Source: a virus. From it: 64,000 bases of DNA. Within the stretch, counting starts at the first letter, position 1, and every line of letters starts with the position of its first letter. The position numbers and the translations under genes were made by a program. The stretch lies in IMG/VR virus record IMGVR_UViG_3300043496_000205, positions 4,253 through 68,252 of that record; one strand, 5' to 3'. The notes below the pieces were generated by a model, which did no database searches, was not told where the DNA came from, and was given only the letters and a program-made list of their open reading frames with translations. Of the stretch, positions 2 to 64,000 are shown one piece after another.

Positions 2-676
2 CTGGTCCAGAACGGGGAGATCAGGGAATATTCAAGAATCCAGTTACTCGAGCGAAAAGGTGTATTTAATTTTTATATTACCACCGATTTTGCCACTTCC
101 GATAAACAAACCGCGGATTTTTCGGTGATCTCCGTCTGGGCGCTCAATGCTCAGGGTGACTGGTTCTGGGTCGACGGCATTGTCGAGCGCCAGACCATGG
201 ACAAGACGATCGATGACCTCTTTCGTCTGGTTCAAACCTACAAGCCCCAGTCCGTGGGCGTCGAAGTCTCCGGCCAGCAGCTGGCTTTCATCAAGTGGTT
301 GCAGCGCGAGATGATGGAACGTAACATCTGGTTCAATTTTGCGTCGTCGGAAAAGAACAACTCCCCTGGGATCCGGCCCATCGTCAATAAATTGGCCCGC
401 TTTAACTTAATCGTCCCGCTATTTAAGGCGGGGAAGATGTACTTTCCCAGCGAGTGGAAAACGTCGAAGATTATGGCGCACTTTTATGGCCAGATTCGCC
501 TCGCAACCAAGAATGGCCTGAAAGGCAAGGACGACTGTCTCGACACGATATCCATGCTGATGTATCTAAATGCCTGGAAGCCCAGCGAAGAGATCGCGGT
601 CCCTGATCCAGGCAGTGGCATGTGGAAGGATACCTTCCCAGACCAGCCAAGCGCCATTTCATCATATATTGTTTGA
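2..676 (+). CDS. terL: Terminase large subunit, C-terminal nuclease domain (5' partial; N4 gp68-like)
   Basis: Frame is open from base 2 (LVQNGEIREYSRIQLLERKGVFNFYITTDFATSDKQTADFSVISVW...); RNase H-like acidic motifs TTDFATS, GVEVSGQQ, DDCLDT. Confidence 0.9.
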   Translation: MVQNGEIREYSRIQLLERKGVFNFYITTDFATSDKQTADFSVISVWALNAQGDWFWVDGIVERQTMDKTIDDLFRLVQTYKPQSVGVEVSGQQLAFIKWLQREMMERNIWFNFASSEKNNSPGIRPIVNKLARFNLIVPLFKAGKMYFPSEWKTSKIMAHFYGQIRLATKNGLKGKDDCLDTISMLMYLNAWKPSEEIAVPDPGSGMWKDTFPDQPSAISSYIV

Positions 677-706
677 TTATTTATGGGTGTTTTCAGGTGA
701 TTTATA

Positions 707-1411
707 ATGAAAATTTTGGAATTATTCCGTAGATTAGCCTACGGAGAGCTTTCCAACCTGGCTGTAGCCAACCCTGATGGGACCCTCGTCACCGAGAAGC
801 ACCCTCAGATGACCCAATACGTGAATGAAGGGCTACTTCGGCTCTATTCGCGGTTCATCCTCGAGGAGAAGGTCGTTCTCATCGAGCAATACGAACATAT
901 CATCAGTTATCACCTGAAGAATCGGTTCTCCGAGTCGGCTGGTGCCGACATCGCCTACCCGTACATCAAGGATATGCCGGATGAGCCCTTCAAGGGTGAC
1001 GTTATCCGCATCCTTCAGGTCACCGACAAGGACGGGAATGTCCGCGTTCTCAACGACAAGGACGATCCGTCCTCCCTCTTTACGCCACAGCCCGATATCC
1101 TTCAGGTTCCGACGCCAATCGAAGGTGAACCACTTTCGATAACCTACCAGGCACGGCATTGGGTCCTCGATGACCGGATCGGCAAGATCCTGGAGCAGGA
1201 AATTGACCTTCCCTTCTTCCTGGAAGGTGCCCTGCAGAGCTTCGTCGCCTACAAGACCTATTCCGATATGAATGGGCAGGAGAACATTGGCAAGAGCCAG
1301 GAAAAACTGGCTGCCTATGAGGCGATCTGTGTCGAAGTCGAGCTGAAAGACCTGATCAATCAGAGCTTCCACACGTCGCACACCAAGCTCGAGCAGCGAG
1401 GCTTTGTCTGA
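707..1411 (+). CDS. N4 gp67-like virion protein (putative head-tail adaptor)
   Basis: 234 aa directly after terL as in N4; GELSNLA, LLRLYSRF, F.LEGALQSFVAYK pattern. Confidence 0.7.
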   Translation: MKILELFRRLAYGELSNLAVANPDGTLVTEKHPQMTQYVNEGLLRLYSRFILEEKVVLIEQYEHIISYHLKNRFSESAGADIAYPYIKDMPDEPFKGDVIRILQVTDKDGNVRVLNDKDDPSSLFTPQPDILQVPTPIEGEPLSITYQARHWVLDDRIGKILEQEIDLPFFLEGALQSFVAYKTYSDMNGQENIGKSQEKLAAYEAICVEVELKDLINQSFHTSHTKLEQRGFV

Positions 1412-61677: not shown

Positions 61678-62905
61678 TGAGGTGAACGATCTGTCCCTGG
61701 GGGACCTTGGCATCCTTGTTGTTGAGGGCGACCCAGATGATGGGGATGTTCAGGTGTGGTGGCAGCGGCTCCATCGGATCGCAGTCCAGGTCACTGAAGA
61801 TCACCACGGCTGTCGGCTCCAGCTTGATGATGTGATCCCTGACGCAAATAAGAGATGTACCACCTCGCCCGGTGATGTGGATCTGCTCGAAGGGGTCATC
61901 CTTCAGGAAGCTGTCCTCCTTCTGAATGATCGTATCGAACTGGGCGAACGTGAGCTTCTCGGGCTGGTAGGTATCCTTGACGTATTTGAACTCGCTGTTG
62001 AAACGGATCGAGTCACCGTCACTGATAGAGCCGGACACATCCTGAAAGAATAGGATGTGATCCAGACCCTGCCGATCATCCTGCAGGCTGGGCAGGTACA
62101 TTCCATCTGTGAGGTAACGGCGGTTTGGCCGAGCCCATGTGTAGTCGAGATTTGCCAGTTCATTGAAAAACTGGTGGAGGATGCGGTCCCAGGGAAGCTT
62201 TGGAGAGAGAAACCTTTTGAGGGTAACCTGCACCTCTCCCGGCATGTCTCCGGCGCCACCGCTGATCGCAGCTGCATGAGCCGCCGAGACCACGTTGTTG
62301 ACGATGGTATGCTCGATGGACTTGGCATCGTCGATGTTCTCTGCCTCGATAAGATCGCCCTTGTCGCCTAGTCCTGTTTCCTCGTCCTTATGGCCCCAGA
62401 GGTCCTCCTGGAACTTCTTGGTGAGGTCCTCGAGCTCCTTGTCCCGGCGAACCAGAAGCGCCTCATAGACCTCCTCTGTGGTCATATTATCGTACTGGTG
62501 ATCGAGCCAGGGAGTGAGGCCCTCGAAGCTGTTACCCTCCAGGTCCAGCATATTGTTGATGACGATGTCTCCGGCCAGGTTCCACAGGTAAGGCTCCCTG
62601 GTTCCACGCCTGAGCATATGCAACAGGGCTGGATGCCAGAGCTCGTGCAGGAGTACCGTAGGACGGGACTTGGGCTTGGTCTTGAGGAACCACCGCGGAT
62701 TCCACTGAAGGACAACCCCGTTGGTGCAGGCAGTGCTGATGTCGCATGTCCATACAAAATTCATGGAGCACATCAGCGGACCCAGGAAGGCTGAGTTCTT
62801 CCCGAGGAATACCTTCGATTTGACCCGGTCGAGCTCCCGGTCAAGCAGCCGATAGTTCAGGTCCGGCAGGACCTTGTTGGTCTTCTTCTGCAGCAATGTC
62901 GTCAT
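61670..62905 (-). CDS. Metallopeptidase plus vWA domain protein (N4 gp25-like)
   Basis: TACTNG, HELWH (HExxH), WNLAGD..IN, RPNRR...YLPSL, MIDAS-like DVSGSIS, GRGGT. Confidence 0.88.
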   Translation of the reverse strand: MTTLLQKKTNKVLPDLNYRLLDRELDRVKSKVFLGKNSAFLGPLMCSMNFVWTCDISTACTNGVVLQWNPRWFLKTKPKSRPTVLLHELWHPALLHMLRRGTREPYLWNLAGDIVINNMLDLEGNSFEGLTPWLDHQYDNMTTEEVYEALLVRRDKELEDLTKKFQEDLWGHKDEETGLGDKGDLIEAENIDDAKSIEHTIVNNVVSAAHAAAISGGAGDMPGEVQVTLKRFLSPKLPWDRILHQFFNELANLDYTWARPNRRYLTDGMYLPSLQDDRQGLDHILFFQDVSGSISDGDSIRFNSEFKYVKDTYQPEKLTFAQFDTIIQKEDSFLKDDPFEQIHITGRGGTSLICVRDHIIKLEPTAVVIFSDLDCDPMEPLPPHLNIPIIWVALNNKDAKVPQGQIVHLNE

Positions 62906-63974
62906 GGAGGTACCTCGACAGTTCGAGCATCGCTGCCCTGAAAGCAGGATGGCGTTTGAGATTAGGCTTCTGAACCATCAGAGCCCGGAAGAAGAGAATG
63001 CGGAACTCTGAGCCGAGCCTATTGATATAAATAGAAATCGGATCGAGATTATTATTTTCCACATTTTCAATTAAATATGTGACGGTAGCCCACTTGGTGG
63101 AGCTATCCCCCGGCAGCTTGGTGATGCCTGGCTCGTCGACGATCTGCTTCAACTTGGGCAGGCTCTCATAGACCCTGGTGAACTGAATGAAGTCGGTGGC
63201 TACACCCGAGGTGATGGCGCCAGCGTAGAGGGCAGCCTCGGCTTCCATCTCATAGAACTCGGAGCCATCGGCCCTCTTCTGGGTCTTGAACGTCCTGCCC
63301 TTGATGAGCTTGTTCATGAACTCCCAGGTGCGTGGAGCACAGAAGGTCTTGTCGTTGTGGTCAGGCCTGAAGTCGTGCAGCAGTGCCTTCTTCATGTTCA
63401 GGAACGCGACGATACGTCCGTCCCAGCCATACCTGAGAGCCACGTCCTCCATGAACTCATCGAAGTTGAGCTCCATGGTCATGTGGATCAGACGTGACTG
63501 CATGGCAGTGCTGATCGGGTTTACGATCGAGCGATCGGTGGTAAGGTTGCCAGCGCAGACCAACACAACACGAGGATGGAGCTTCCGTTGACCGACCATC
63601 TTGTCAAGGACAAGCTTGTAAGCAGCTGCCTGCACCATCTTGGGGGCGGCATTGAACTCATCAAGGAACAGCATCCAGCCGTCCTTCCCCTCCGGCAGAG
63701 GGGTCCCTTCAGTTGGGAACGTGTCGAACGGAATGAAGGAAGCATTCCCGTTCAGGAAGTTGGGAAGCCCACTGAGATCTTCTGGAGCCGAAGTCGACAG
63801 GCGATGGTCAATCATGTGAAGATTAAACTCTCGAGCAATCTCGGCCATGATGGCTGACTTGCCCATCGCAGGCGATGACTGCACGAACGGGACGAGACCC
63901 GCCATCATGCATCGGATGACATAGCGTTTGACCTGACGTGGCGTGCAGGTATAGGCCGATAGCCCTGTGCTCAT
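62841..63974 (-). CDS. MoxR-like AAA+ ATPase (N4 gp24-like)
   Basis: SPAMGKS Walker A, EDLSGLP, LFLDEFN Walker B, VQAAAY.LVL, AGN, SRL, PRTWE. Confidence 0.9.
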   Translation of the reverse strand: MSTGLSAYTCTPRQVKRYVIRCMMAGLVPFVQSSPAMGKSAIMAEIAREFNLHMIDHRLSTSAPEDLSGLPNFLNGNASFIPFDTFPTEGTPLPEGKDGWMLFLDEFNAAPKMVQAAAYKLVLDKMVGQRKLHPRVVLVCAGNLTTDRSIVNPISTAMQSRLIHMTMELNFDEFMEDVALRYGWDGRIVAFLNMKKALLHDFRPDHNDKTFCAPRTWEFMNKLIKGRTFKTQKRADGSEFYEMEAEAALYAGAITSGVATDFIQFTRVYESLPKLKQIVDEPGITKLPGDSSTKWATVTYLIENVENNNLDPISIYINRLGSEFRILFFRALMVQKPNLKRHPAFRAAMLELSRYLHDDIAAEEDQQGPAGPELSAA

Positions 63975-64000
63975 GGCTTTGATTTCCTCAATAATTTGAT

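Follow-up and report, generated by a model that had tools for sequence, protein, structure and literature searches.

Why should a GC-rich phage genome be interrupted by short AT-rich islands, even deep inside its genes? The question is raised by a soil Schitoviridae contig, complete at 77.6 kb, the genome (55% GC) of an N4-like phage whose host is probably rhizobial, of which we analysed a stretch of 64,000 nucleotides (the window). All 17 AT patches reported in a first-pass annotation were recovered at their positions, with reading frames unbroken across them. The islands measure 40-150 bp, have a GC content of 15-33% and contain unbroken A/T runs of at least 10 bp (Table 1). They are not an assembly artefact, since contigs of other soil metagenomes run across them. 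Gene junctions hold about 40% of the islands (20 of 49); AT-richness at such junctions is ordinary.

Table 1. AT islands and the H-NS-family gene in the window.
Feature	Position	Strand	Basis or remark
H-NS-family gene, 188 aa	58837..59403	-	PF00816, 40.2 bits (cut-off 25.6)
Island, tail gene 3582-5945	4313..4384	+	GC 0.32; synonymous island 4299-4373
Island close to 3' end, gene 6834-7340	7232..7299	+	GC and synonymous scans
Island close to 3' end, gene 7947-8636	8526..8592	+	GC and synonymous scans
Island inside gene 8640-10874	9796..9840	+	GC and synonymous scans
Double island, 921-aa tail gene	13347..13475	+	13-bp A/T run at 13368; comes after in-frame ATG at 13357
Island inside gene 11554-14319	13639..13678	+	GC scan
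Two islands, first 170 bp of gene 15455-16615	15514..15624	+	GC scan, A/T runs
Island inside gene 17745-19985	18469..18526	+	GC scan, A/T runs
Junction and intergenic islands upstream of portal gene	21932..22205	.	GC scan; sole perfect TCGATAAATT at 22044-22053
Portal-gene island	23205..23272	+	Partly common to L001; unconserved in distant relatives
Second portal-gene island	24131..24170	+	GC and synonymous scans
Island inside gene 25227-26450	25798..25852	+	Common to L082
Island inside gene 29789-32056	30269..30367	+	GC 0.28; common to L082
Further island, gene 29789-32056	31085..31127	+	GC scan
Island, gene 32589-34832	32965..33025	+	Common to L082; sigma70-like match
Island, gene 32589-34832	33335..33406	+	Window-specific vs L082
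Island, gene 32589-34832	34616..34675	+	Window-specific vs L082
vRNAP island 1	37000..37062	+	Common to L082
vRNAP island 2, longest synonymous island	38652..38832	+	Patch list: 38755-38832
vRNAP island 3	39945..39989	+	15-bp A/T run
vRNAP island 4, between PF21867 and PF21894 hits	41490..41549	+	Common to L082
vRNAP island 5, between PF21894 and PF21769 hits	42197..42242	+	Common to L082
vRNAP island 6	43366..43434	+	GC and synonymous scans
vRNAP island 7	44853..44909	+	Window-specific vs L082
vRNAP island 8	45463..45517	+	Common to L082
vRNAP island 9	46851..46895	+	Window-specific vs L082
Island inside gene 48515-49405	49056..49143	-	Common to L082
Island, exonuclease-like gene 53120-54190	53775..53836	-	Common to L082
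Longest island, 149 bp, intergenic, exonuclease-like/DNA polymerase genes	54164..54312	.	GC scan
DNA polymerase gene island	55725..55794	-	Window-specific vs L082
DNA polymerase gene, second island	56088..56153	-	GC scan
Helicase gene island	57593..57652	-	GC scan
Island over helicase start, directly downstream of hns	58651..58712	-	18-bp A/T run
Island inside gene 62841-63974	63015..63090	-	GC and synonymous scans

As a null model, synonymous codons were shuffled within genes, keeping the protein and the per-gene codon usage. Against this null, merged intragenic islands (40-bp windows, GC ≤ 0.25) were about eight-fold in excess (16 vs 1.8 ± 1.2), and windows with a synonymous-only residual of -6 or below numbered 126 vs 7, bearing out the initial proposal that the islands are written into synonymous positions. 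Amino-acid composition alone is insufficient to account for them: islands arise at places where the peptide permits A/T-rich codons, and only 24 of 188 such places (13%) are used. The genome has two regimes, in which TpA (1518 vs 1993 expected genome-wide, a strong depletion), A/T runs of at least 6 bp (151 vs 188 genome-wide) and G/C runs of at least 8 bp (61 vs 172) are scarce, yet A/T runs of at least 10 bp are in excess (21 vs 8.2).

The islands had also been described as quasi-regular, and their spacing was more even than chance. Across the whole window the mean interval was 1.3-1.5 kb with a CV of 0.59-0.70 (vs 0.97), and inside the single 12.5-kb vRNAP ORF the CV fell to 0.26 (vs 0.77, P = 0.002). 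With gene boundaries held fixed, even spacing was found both in the window genome (G000, P = 0.004-0.015) and in G003, a distant relative (P = 0.013-0.036). Compared with random subsets of the peptide-permitted sites, the converted sites were again more evenly distributed in G000 (P = 0.009) and G003 (P = 0.016), with P = 0.053 in L082; G004 showed no even spacing in either test. The observation of synonymous AT islands in excess and evenly spaced is thus confirmed.

Two details of the first description, TpA-richness and repeated cores, did not survive. When synonymous codons were shuffled among island codons only, TpA inside islands was 340 vs 349 ± 7, and ATTAAT (7 vs 7.0), TATTAA (9 vs 7.1) and AATAAT (10 vs 10.5) occurred about as often as expected. 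No AT-rich k-mer stood out genome-wide, and the islands lacked strand polarity, the mildly enriched words being reverse-complement pairs. Sigma70-type promoters are unsupported as the identity of the islands, which have no polarity and no enrichment of -10-like words (TATAAT 3 vs 3.9, TTGACA 0 vs 1.6). What marks the islands is a shift in GC3, graded by how A/T-rich the first two codon positions are: on the logit scale it amounted in G000 to -0.45 for SS, -0.94 for mixed and -1.61 for WW codons, with the same grading in L082, G003 and G004 and no shift for Ala codons. The data support an island signal that tracks A/T content and the A/T context nearby more closely than codon rarity by itself. 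Matches to the high-affinity H-NS motif of E. coli were mildly enriched (45 vs 30 ± 4.9). The suggestion of a DNA-level code stands in part: a DNA-level constraint is favoured because the excess is synonymous, led by A/T context, without strand polarity and evenly spaced, and a code of repeated words is not upheld. The islands are DNA elements set by composition, with no motif.

Among N4-likes, only relatives that are GC-rich and carry their own H-NS show the island habit. The phage protein has an acidic N-terminal extension, a helical stretch around residues 95-140 that is conserved and, at the C terminus, a domain for DNA binding carrying TWSGRGKEPAW. Its gene is syntenic in every relative that has it, with a place immediately upstream of the gene for the helicase in G001, G003, G004, L161-L164 and the Schitoviridae isolates OLIVR1 (Agrobacterium) and ZX86 (Ochrobactrum), and it is absent from all 29 other near-complete N4-like contigs. 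As the first-pass annotation led us to expect, none of 11 GC-matched N4-like genomes without hns displayed the island phenotype. Within the hns+ N4-likes, which range from 45 to 65% GC, island load rose with GC (rho 0.75, n = 11; rho 0.68, n = 15, P = 0.005 in a larger set), and of four GC-rich hns+ contigs from outside the sample, three had 23-34 windows in excess per 10 kb. AT-codon clusters are slightly in excess in all N4-likes (1.3-8 fold), so the hns+ clade differs in degree.

Possession of hns is not accompanied by islands everywhere: G001, L150 and L162 (hns+, 53-56% GC) show no island excess, nor do EPV1, vB_CB2b and BCSR5, which are hns+ but unrelated. OLIVR1 and ZX86 share with our phage the order H-NS-like gene, helicase, DNA polymerase, Rhizobiales/Hyphomicrobiales hosts and a match to this H-NS domain (annotated as H-NS in OLIVR1, as a hypothetical protein in ZX86), but have 45-50% GC and no island excess; a paper on OLIVR1 leaves H-NS unmentioned. 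Because the hns+ N4-like genomes form one clade (SH-aLRT 100), the association derives from a single gain of hns, and the real cause could be another trait of this clade, or of its hosts. The confinement of islands to GC-rich hns+ relatives nevertheless makes them possible loading sites for phage H-NS. The phenotype persists in lineages with differing island positions, so its cause is ongoing. With a probability of roughly 0.4, we propose that the islands are selected for composition and spacing, letting phage H-NS load onto otherwise GC-rich DNA.

Alternatively, the islands may be functionless, a possible but in our view doubtful reading. AT-biased mutation would build patches where protein and codon constraints are weak; most GC-rich N4-likes would purge them, for instance as targets of host silencers or sources of spurious promoters, and the hns+ clade would tolerate them, perhaps with their cost neutralised by phage H-NS or another trait. 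Two results fit this reading, and count against loading sites, in that relaxed constraint would predict them: protein segments evolve faster where islands are lineage-specific (amino-acid identity 0.50-0.56 vs 0.71), and shared islands are conserved no better than background (same codon given the same residue, 0.63 vs 0.62). Also consistent with it, vRNAP island 7 evolves fast (six differences within 55 bp in other soil strains), a motif is absent, the weak cluster excess is general, hns is not sufficient and island positions turn over among relatives. Uniform regional mutation bias, however, should move all codon families alike, whereas the observed shift varies with A/T context and is nil in Ala; nor would a by-product be expected to remain evenly spaced after conditioning on peptide-permitted sites, to convert only 13% of them, or to coexist with active depletion of TpA and short A/T runs elsewhere in the genome. 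Far less plausible, and very improbable overall, is import by recombination from AT-rich relatives, or survival of un-ameliorated relics of an AT-rich ancestor. The GC range of the clade, the high divergence of lineage-specific islands and the nearest partial relative, L001 (GC3 0.45-0.56; A/T at most A/T sites of the window, 107 vs 30), fit such an origin. The islands, at 15-33% GC, nonetheless fall far below any relative's average (45-47%), and protein identity is normal at shared islands; moreover, a donor or relic would shift every codon family, Ala included, amelioration acting site by site would not preserve clusters of 40-100 bp, and islands surviving at random would not end up evenly spaced.

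Two further readings assign the islands a role in gene expression. It is unlikely that they are melting sites or internal promoters, easily unwound entry points for transcription or replication priming that phage RNAPII with a ssDNA-binding cofactor, or host RNAP with phage SSB, would require at intervals in very long operons and the vRNAP gene. The N4 middle promoters offer a precedent within the family: they are AT-rich DNA that some factor must melt before RNAPII use, with sequence information on the template strand, in the middle-gene region (PMC4496689). The location of 20 of the 49 islands at junctions, a mild enrichment of sigma70-like matches (14 vs 8.0 ± 2.8, three coinciding with islands) and the compatibility of re-initiation or priming with even spacing also speak for this reading. 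Unlike middle promoters, however, the islands have neither polarity nor motif and fill late and replication genes equally; in-frame start signals were not found at them, and the 11 hns-less genomes, with the same gene order, lack interior islands. We regard as quite improbable that the islands are translational pauses, in which rare-codon clusters slow ribosomes and help large multidomain proteins to fold co-translationally. Such clusters are position-conserved among homologues, and the islands resemble them in grouping non-preferred synonymous codons with frames intact: TTA, ATA, AGA and CAA are up 3-9 fold, codon rarity is a significant regression term (0.65-0.78), two islands of the RNAP core lie between hits to Pfam domains, and half of the islands are common to a relative of 58-92% protein identity. 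Yet the rare G/C-ending codons GGG, TTG, CGG and AGG are not enriched, the common A/T-ending AAT, TAT, GAT, GGT and GTT are, and the shift follows A/T context. The islands also extend through intergenic DNA, are evenly spaced and confined to one clade, encode peptides that, read from the translations, resemble ordinary folded segments rather than linkers, and are not conserved in position in distant relatives; other N4-likes with equally giant vRNAPs lack the phenotype.

The proposed loading of phage H-NS has partial parallels elsewhere. In enterobacteria, H-NS binds intragenic AT-rich DNA and suppresses spurious transcription, making AT-rich stretches within genes natural H-NS targets; there, however, whole horizontally acquired genes are AT-rich, rather than spaced synonymous islands in a genome that codes for the binder too. 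CGP3 is a mobile element whose own AT-selective silencer binds the element's AT-rich DNA, but it is a silent prophage and AT-rich throughout, whereas the present lytic phage has a GC-rich genome, short, even synonymous islands in essential genes and putative H-NS binding. The temperate podovirus EPV1 also has a full-length gene for H-NS, whose proposed role is to silence defence genes of the host, and three H-NS sites were predicted in its genome (Skennerton et al. 2011, PMC3097231). EPV1 is unrelated to N4-likes, and by the same index its intragenic islands are not in excess (6 vs 3-5 windows).

At about one in eight A/T-permissive peptide places (Asn, Tyr, Ile, Lys, Phe, Glu, Gln, Val) the synonymous codons are switched to A/T, and interior islands together with AT-rich gene junctions recur along the genome at intervals of 1.2-2.3 kb. 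Since H-NS proteins depend on AT-rich stretches, a genome rich in GC would give them almost no foothold, so even islands would allow loading, probably as nucleation sites for the H-NS-family protein encoded beside the helicase. From sequence we infer that H-NS may be the reader of the islands and that, once loaded, it would spread or bridge over the whole phage chromosome, a putative coating that could serve late-gene timing, compaction or shielding.

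Synonymous codon positions in this N4-like phage hold many more AT-rich patches than its proteins and codon usage predict. All 17 patches named in the first-pass annotation were found where it had placed them, and a scan with 40-bp windows at GC ≤ 0.30 detected about 50 islands in the window (52 or 49 under different merging gaps), with 15–33% GC against 55% for the genome. Twenty of 49 lay no more than 60 bp from a gene boundary, positions that account for just 12% of the window. As a null, synonymous codons were permuted within each gene, which leaves every protein and the codon usage of every gene unchanged. 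Against this null, interior islands in 40-bp windows numbered 16 versus 1.8 ± 1.2 at GC ≤ 0.25 and 32 versus 10.8 ± 2.8 at GC ≤ 0.30, and 14-codon windows scoring −6 or lower with the amino-acid contribution removed numbered 126 versus 7, bearing out the proposal that the signal sits in synonymous positions. Overall, GC varied slightly less than under the null: most of the sequence is homogenised, and the tail of low values is heavy. Run lengths repeat this two-regime pattern: A/T runs of at least 6 bp (151 versus 188) and G/C runs of at least 8 bp (61 versus 172) were depleted, while A/T runs of at least 10 bp (21 versus 8.2) and at least 12 bp (8 versus 2.1) were in excess. TpA was depleted genome-wide (1518 versus 1993 ± 23).

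An assembly artefact is ruled out, as contigs of other, independent studies run across the islands and L082, an N4-like relative, has half of them. Nor do the islands mark hidden or internal gene starts, since in-frame Shine-Dalgarno plus ATG combinations occurred at 0.78/kb in island zones versus 1.50/kb elsewhere. Two individual islands touch on gene structure. The longest-ORF start GTG 27734 is likely wrong, and a GGAGG box followed by ATG 27789, within an AT island, resembles the true start. In a 921-aa tail gene, a double island at 13357–13475 comes after an in-frame ATG, and the peptide MSGSINYYVNKTTGVDTNDG... looks like the opening of a distinct tailspike domain of enzyme type; two modules may meet here, or two genes may have fused long ago.

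To avoid circularity, each codon was scored by its neighbours only. Inside islands, AAT rose from 0.40 to 0.83 among Asn codons, TAT from 0.44 to 0.83 (Tyr), AAA from 0.20 to 0.53 (Lys), TTA from 0.02 to 0.18 (Leu) and GTT from 0.16 to 0.49 (Val), and ATC fell from 0.75 to 0.30 (Ile); Ala codons did not shift. The logit GC3 shift grew with the number of A/T bases at codon positions 1 and 2 (−0.45, −0.94 and −1.61 in this genome), a gradient that was the same in L082, G003 and G004, weaker in G006 and G011, and absent in G001 and G028. Codon choice thus builds contiguous A/T stretches, whereas a mutation bias uniform across a region, or DNA imported from an AT-rich donor, should shift every codon family alike. 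Amino-acid replacements were pushed towards AT-rich codons only weakly and inconsistently (−0.17 ± 0.09 and −0.06 ± 0.07).

The quasi-regular spacing claimed in the first-pass annotation held: the coefficient of variation (CV) of inter-island distances was 0.59–0.70, compared with 0.97 ± 0.13 for random placement. When junction islands were fixed and interior ones moved to random places inside genes under a 100-bp exclusion zone, spacing remained more even than expected in this genome (P = 0.004–0.015) and in the deeply diverged G003 (P = 0.013–0.036), reached P = 0.09 in L082 and gave no signal in G004 or G001. Within the ORF of the giant virion RNA polymerase (vRNAP) alone, eight islands were separated by gaps of 1173–2252 bp (CV 0.26 versus 0.77 ± 0.23, P = 0.0018), and a milder threshold gave eleven islands and P = 0.018. 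Because protein sequence could predispose positions, candidate sites were also set by amino-acid composition alone. Of the 25 interior islands, 24 fell on such sites; only 24 of the 188 predisposed segments were converted, which rejects amino-acid composition as a full explanation, and the synonymous and amino-acid parts of the signal were negatively correlated overall. The converted sites were more evenly spaced than random subsets in this genome (P = 0.009) and G003 (P = 0.016), with P = 0.053 in L082 and P = 0.19 in G004.

No AT-rich word was enriched genome-wide in k-mer counts against codon shuffles. The proposed repeated cores ATTAAT, TATTAA and AATAAT stood at expectation when synonymous codons were shuffled among island codons only (7 versus 7.0, 9 versus 7.1 and 10 versus 10.5), and TpA in the islands was not above composition (340 versus 349 ± 7). 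Run length inside islands was likewise at expectation under this shuffle. Composition, and not a code of words, therefore defines the islands. The few enriched words form reverse-complement pairs (TAATC/GATTA, GTTAAT/ATTAAC), and the islands therefore lack strand polarity.

The source contig is complete, with 77,620 bp and direct terminal repeats; its bases 4253–68252, with 55.4% GC, make up the window. A giant virion RNA polymerase, an N4-type capsid and portal, and N4 gene order place the phage in Schitoviridae; its capsid protein is 74% identical to that of N4, and its gene order is syntenic with the Agrobacterium phage OLIVR1 and the Ochrobactrum phage ZX86. Late genes occupy the plus strand up to 47360 and replication genes the minus strand from 47344. 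The vRNAP (ORF 34839–47360, 4173 aa) carries PF21894, PF21769 and PF21867 and is some 670 aa longer than that of N4, which has roughly 3500 aa. Its nearest counterparts, P0002 and P0003 (60–65% identity), have an additional PF10686 (YAcAr) domain that is neither listed for the window vRNAP nor detected there with Pfam. Soil metagenomes of at least nine studies contain strains 2–3% diverged from the window. A search of metagenome contigs with the vRNAP yielded no closer relatives, megablast of phage records gave 0 matches, and none of the RNA or ChIP runs searched contained this phage. Among 40 of 969 strain differences listed, paired 1-base insertions and deletions a few bases apart occur at 33207–33211, 35482–35489, 45748–45752 and 47514–47518, compensated frameshifts that rewrite 1–3 codons. 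Where the end of the vRNAP gene converges on the first minus-strand gene (47465–47720), strains differ by rearrangement, with skips of 87 and 185 bp and joints that go back.

The host probably belongs to the Rhizobiales/Hyphomicrobiales: the closest named cellular relatives of the phage H-NS come from Mesorhizobium (46–47% identity), Agrobacterium and Ochrobactrum are the hosts of the cultured phages that have the H-NS-like gene in the same gene order, and GANTC, which CcrM methylates in alphaproteobacteria, is underrepresented (101 versus 179 ± 10 in the codon-shuffled null). In the coding regions of the window, several palindromes are also strongly avoided relative to that null (GCCGGC 2 versus 43, GACGTC 0 versus 21, GGGCCC 0 versus 17.5, CGGCCG 0 versus 25, CTAG 18 versus 60) and GATC is enriched (542 versus 415); together with the GANTC deficit, this pattern points to restriction systems of the host and a methylase of the CcrM type.

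The 188-aa product of 58837–59403 (minus strand) matches PF00816, the C-terminal H-NS DNA-binding domain (E = 2.9e-10, 40.2 bits versus a cut-off of 25.6). Its translation contains TWSGRGKEPAW, in agreement with the minor-groove loop motif of the H-NS family, which takes the form T-W-x-G-(Q/R)-G-(R/K)-x-P, and W-S-G-R-G-K-E-P is identical across four orthologues. As to the N-terminal oligomerisation (coiled-coil) domain of the family, a region at residues 95–140, N-terminal of the DNA-binding domain, has no Pfam match and is conserved in all orthologues, and those of G001, G003 and G004 lie immediately upstream of the helicase gene. The acidic N-terminal extension carries DIPQFLKK (residues ~21–28; 59320–59343), replaced by EIPAFLKK at the matching place in G004 (L084) and missing from G001 and G003. 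H-NS is annotated in the GenBank record of OLIVR1, and one paper on that phage makes no mention of it. The surrounding replication module encodes a DUF6283 protein (60775–61242) and a DUF2201 metallopeptidase/VWA-like protein (61670–62905), the latter kept in hns+ relatives. A GcrA-like protein, an alphaproteobacterial cell-cycle regulator, is found in two hns+ relatives (the contig of P0083 and L161, 3985–4503); RtcB, DNA ligase or dCMP deaminase shares its module in some hns+ relatives, and L163 and L164 encode an HU-like protein besides H-NS.

None of 29 other near-complete N4-like contigs contained an H-NS domain. The hns+ genomes form one fully supported clade, which implies a single gain. 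All 11 GC-matched genomes in the comparison with hns-less N4-like phages lay at the null for interior islands, as the proposal of an H-NS-linked signal had anticipated.

Interior islands in N4-like genomes with and without hns (the hns+ status of L082 is inferred by equating it with P0044)
Genome	hns	Interior islands	Null
G000 (this phage)	+	16	2.0
L082	+	7	2.3
G003	+	16	1.5
G004	+	5	1.3
G001	+	1	0.8
11 GC-matched genomes	−	at null	

Counting all islands, density was 3.2–7.4 per 10 kb in hns+ and 0.1–2.8 in hns− genomes. A more sensitive index detected some excess in every N4-like genome (1.3–8 fold) and 7–20 fold in hns+ genomes except G001. The gene is not a sufficient cause: OLIVR1 (45% GC), ZX86 (50%), G001 (53%), and L150 and L162 (56%) show little or no excess, and the unrelated hns+ phages EPV1, vB_CB2b and BCSR5 are also without it. 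Among hns+ N4-like phages, island load rose with genome GC (Spearman 0.75, n = 11, ignoring kinship and inflated by sister pairs such as G000/L082 and G004/L147). Four added contigs, three of them at 23–34 excess windows per 10 kb, gave 0.68 (n = 15, P = 0.005, kinship again ignored), and hns− genomes showed no trend (rho 0.13, load 0.4–7.7). In G001 (L086–L089), about 22 AT islands lie at gene junctions and almost none inside genes, so junction and interior islands can be uncoupled.

On balance, the evidence speaks for a constraint on composition and spacing that acts on the nucleic acid, and we put the probability that the islands are selected at all at roughly 0.6–0.65. Single islands do not keep their positions in distant relatives (45–70% protein identity), although smoothed synonymous profiles correlate weakly (r ~0.2–0.3). 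In L082 (58–92% protein identity, 57% GC), with synonymous sites not saturated, about half of the islands are in common (69 windows low in both versus 6.3 expected). Given the same residue, those islands keep the same codon no more often than the background (0.63 versus 0.62; saturation expectation 0.44), and lineage-specific islands lie in faster-evolving protein segments (amino-acid identity 0.50–0.56 versus 0.71). Compensatory turnover between the two genomes was not significant (nearest-neighbour median 100 versus 161 codons, P = 0.13). The phenotype is therefore held in relatives, and position and sequence are not. That the islands are a tolerated mutational by-product seems unlikely to us; in the form of a uniform mutation bias it is disfavoured because all codon families should then shift alike. 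The same argument counts against patches from an AT-rich donor or relics of an AT-rich ancestor, which we regard as highly improbable.

Melting sites or promoters would fit the AT-rich, melt-dependent middle promoters of N4, which are strand-specific in template sequence and lie in the middle-gene region (PMC4496689). The islands are AT-rich without polarity or a common word, and fill late genes too. For sigma70-type promoters (−35/−10, 16–18 bp spacing, gene-oriented), 14 matches versus 8.0 ± 2.8 were found in 19 kb, only 3 of them at islands, and within islands TATAAT (3 versus 3.9) and TTGACA (0 versus 1.6) were not enriched, and there was no strand polarity; we judge melting sites or promoters as an explanation distinctly unlikely. 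Translational pausing, which we hold improbable, may still contribute a component, as the codon rarity term stayed significant in regression. This genome encodes no tRNAs that might offset AT-ending codons. Clusters of rare codons whatever their base composition were not what we observed: rare G/C-ending codons (GGG, TTG, CGG) were not enriched in islands, and common A/T-ending ones rose, graded by A/T context.

For selected islands, the strongest candidate for a reader is the H-NS that the phage itself encodes, an assignment that we make tentatively, at somewhat less than even odds. H-NS nucleation calls for AT-rich stretches of some 10 bp upwards set in sequence with less A/T; the excess of long A/T runs supplies these, and the sequence that E. 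coli H-NS binds with high affinity, TCGATAAATT, has 45 matches at up to 2 mismatches versus 30 ± 4.9, with island TpA not above composition. As the genomes of the clade turned GC-rich, H-NS would have been left without nucleation places unless AT-rich patches were kept at intervals; binding might then affect late-gene timing, compaction or shielding. Further-reaching, and in our view doubtful, is the idea that a lytic N4-like lineage of soil alphaproteobacteria builds its own chromatin, in which evenly spaced synonymous AT loading sites, put into essential genes by selection while the genomes turned GC-rich, would let phage H-NS nucleate every 1–2 kb and coat or bridge the whole chromosome.

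Related systems are known. For the H-NS that EPV1 encodes, silencing of the host's defences has been proposed, with three predicted sites in EPV1 itself (PMC3097231); the silencer CgpS binds the AT-rich element CGP3 that encodes it (PMC7074111). Within the portions of the literature searched, we found no lytic phage described as having synonymous AT islands at even spacing. Because the mechanism is a candidate and the hns association rests on one gain, we do not consider the finding categorically new. If the islands are only tolerated by-products, one clade escapes the strong purging of AT tracts seen in its GC-rich relatives, which bears on how silencers shape phage composition. If they do have a function, they would stand as a clear case in nature of a second constraint laid over coding sequence, one that acts through composition and spacing without a motif, and phage-encoded H-NS would act on the phage's own DNA, beyond the host genes proposed for EPV1. 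Function could then be destroyed when such phages are codon-optimised or synonymously recoded, and island load relative to GC would offer a simple genomic signature in the search for further viruses or plasmids whose own DNA is organised by AT-selective proteins. Should the phage indeed build its own chromatin, its coding DNA would carry, as a further layer, information that is independent of the protein and that a viral nucleoid protein reads.
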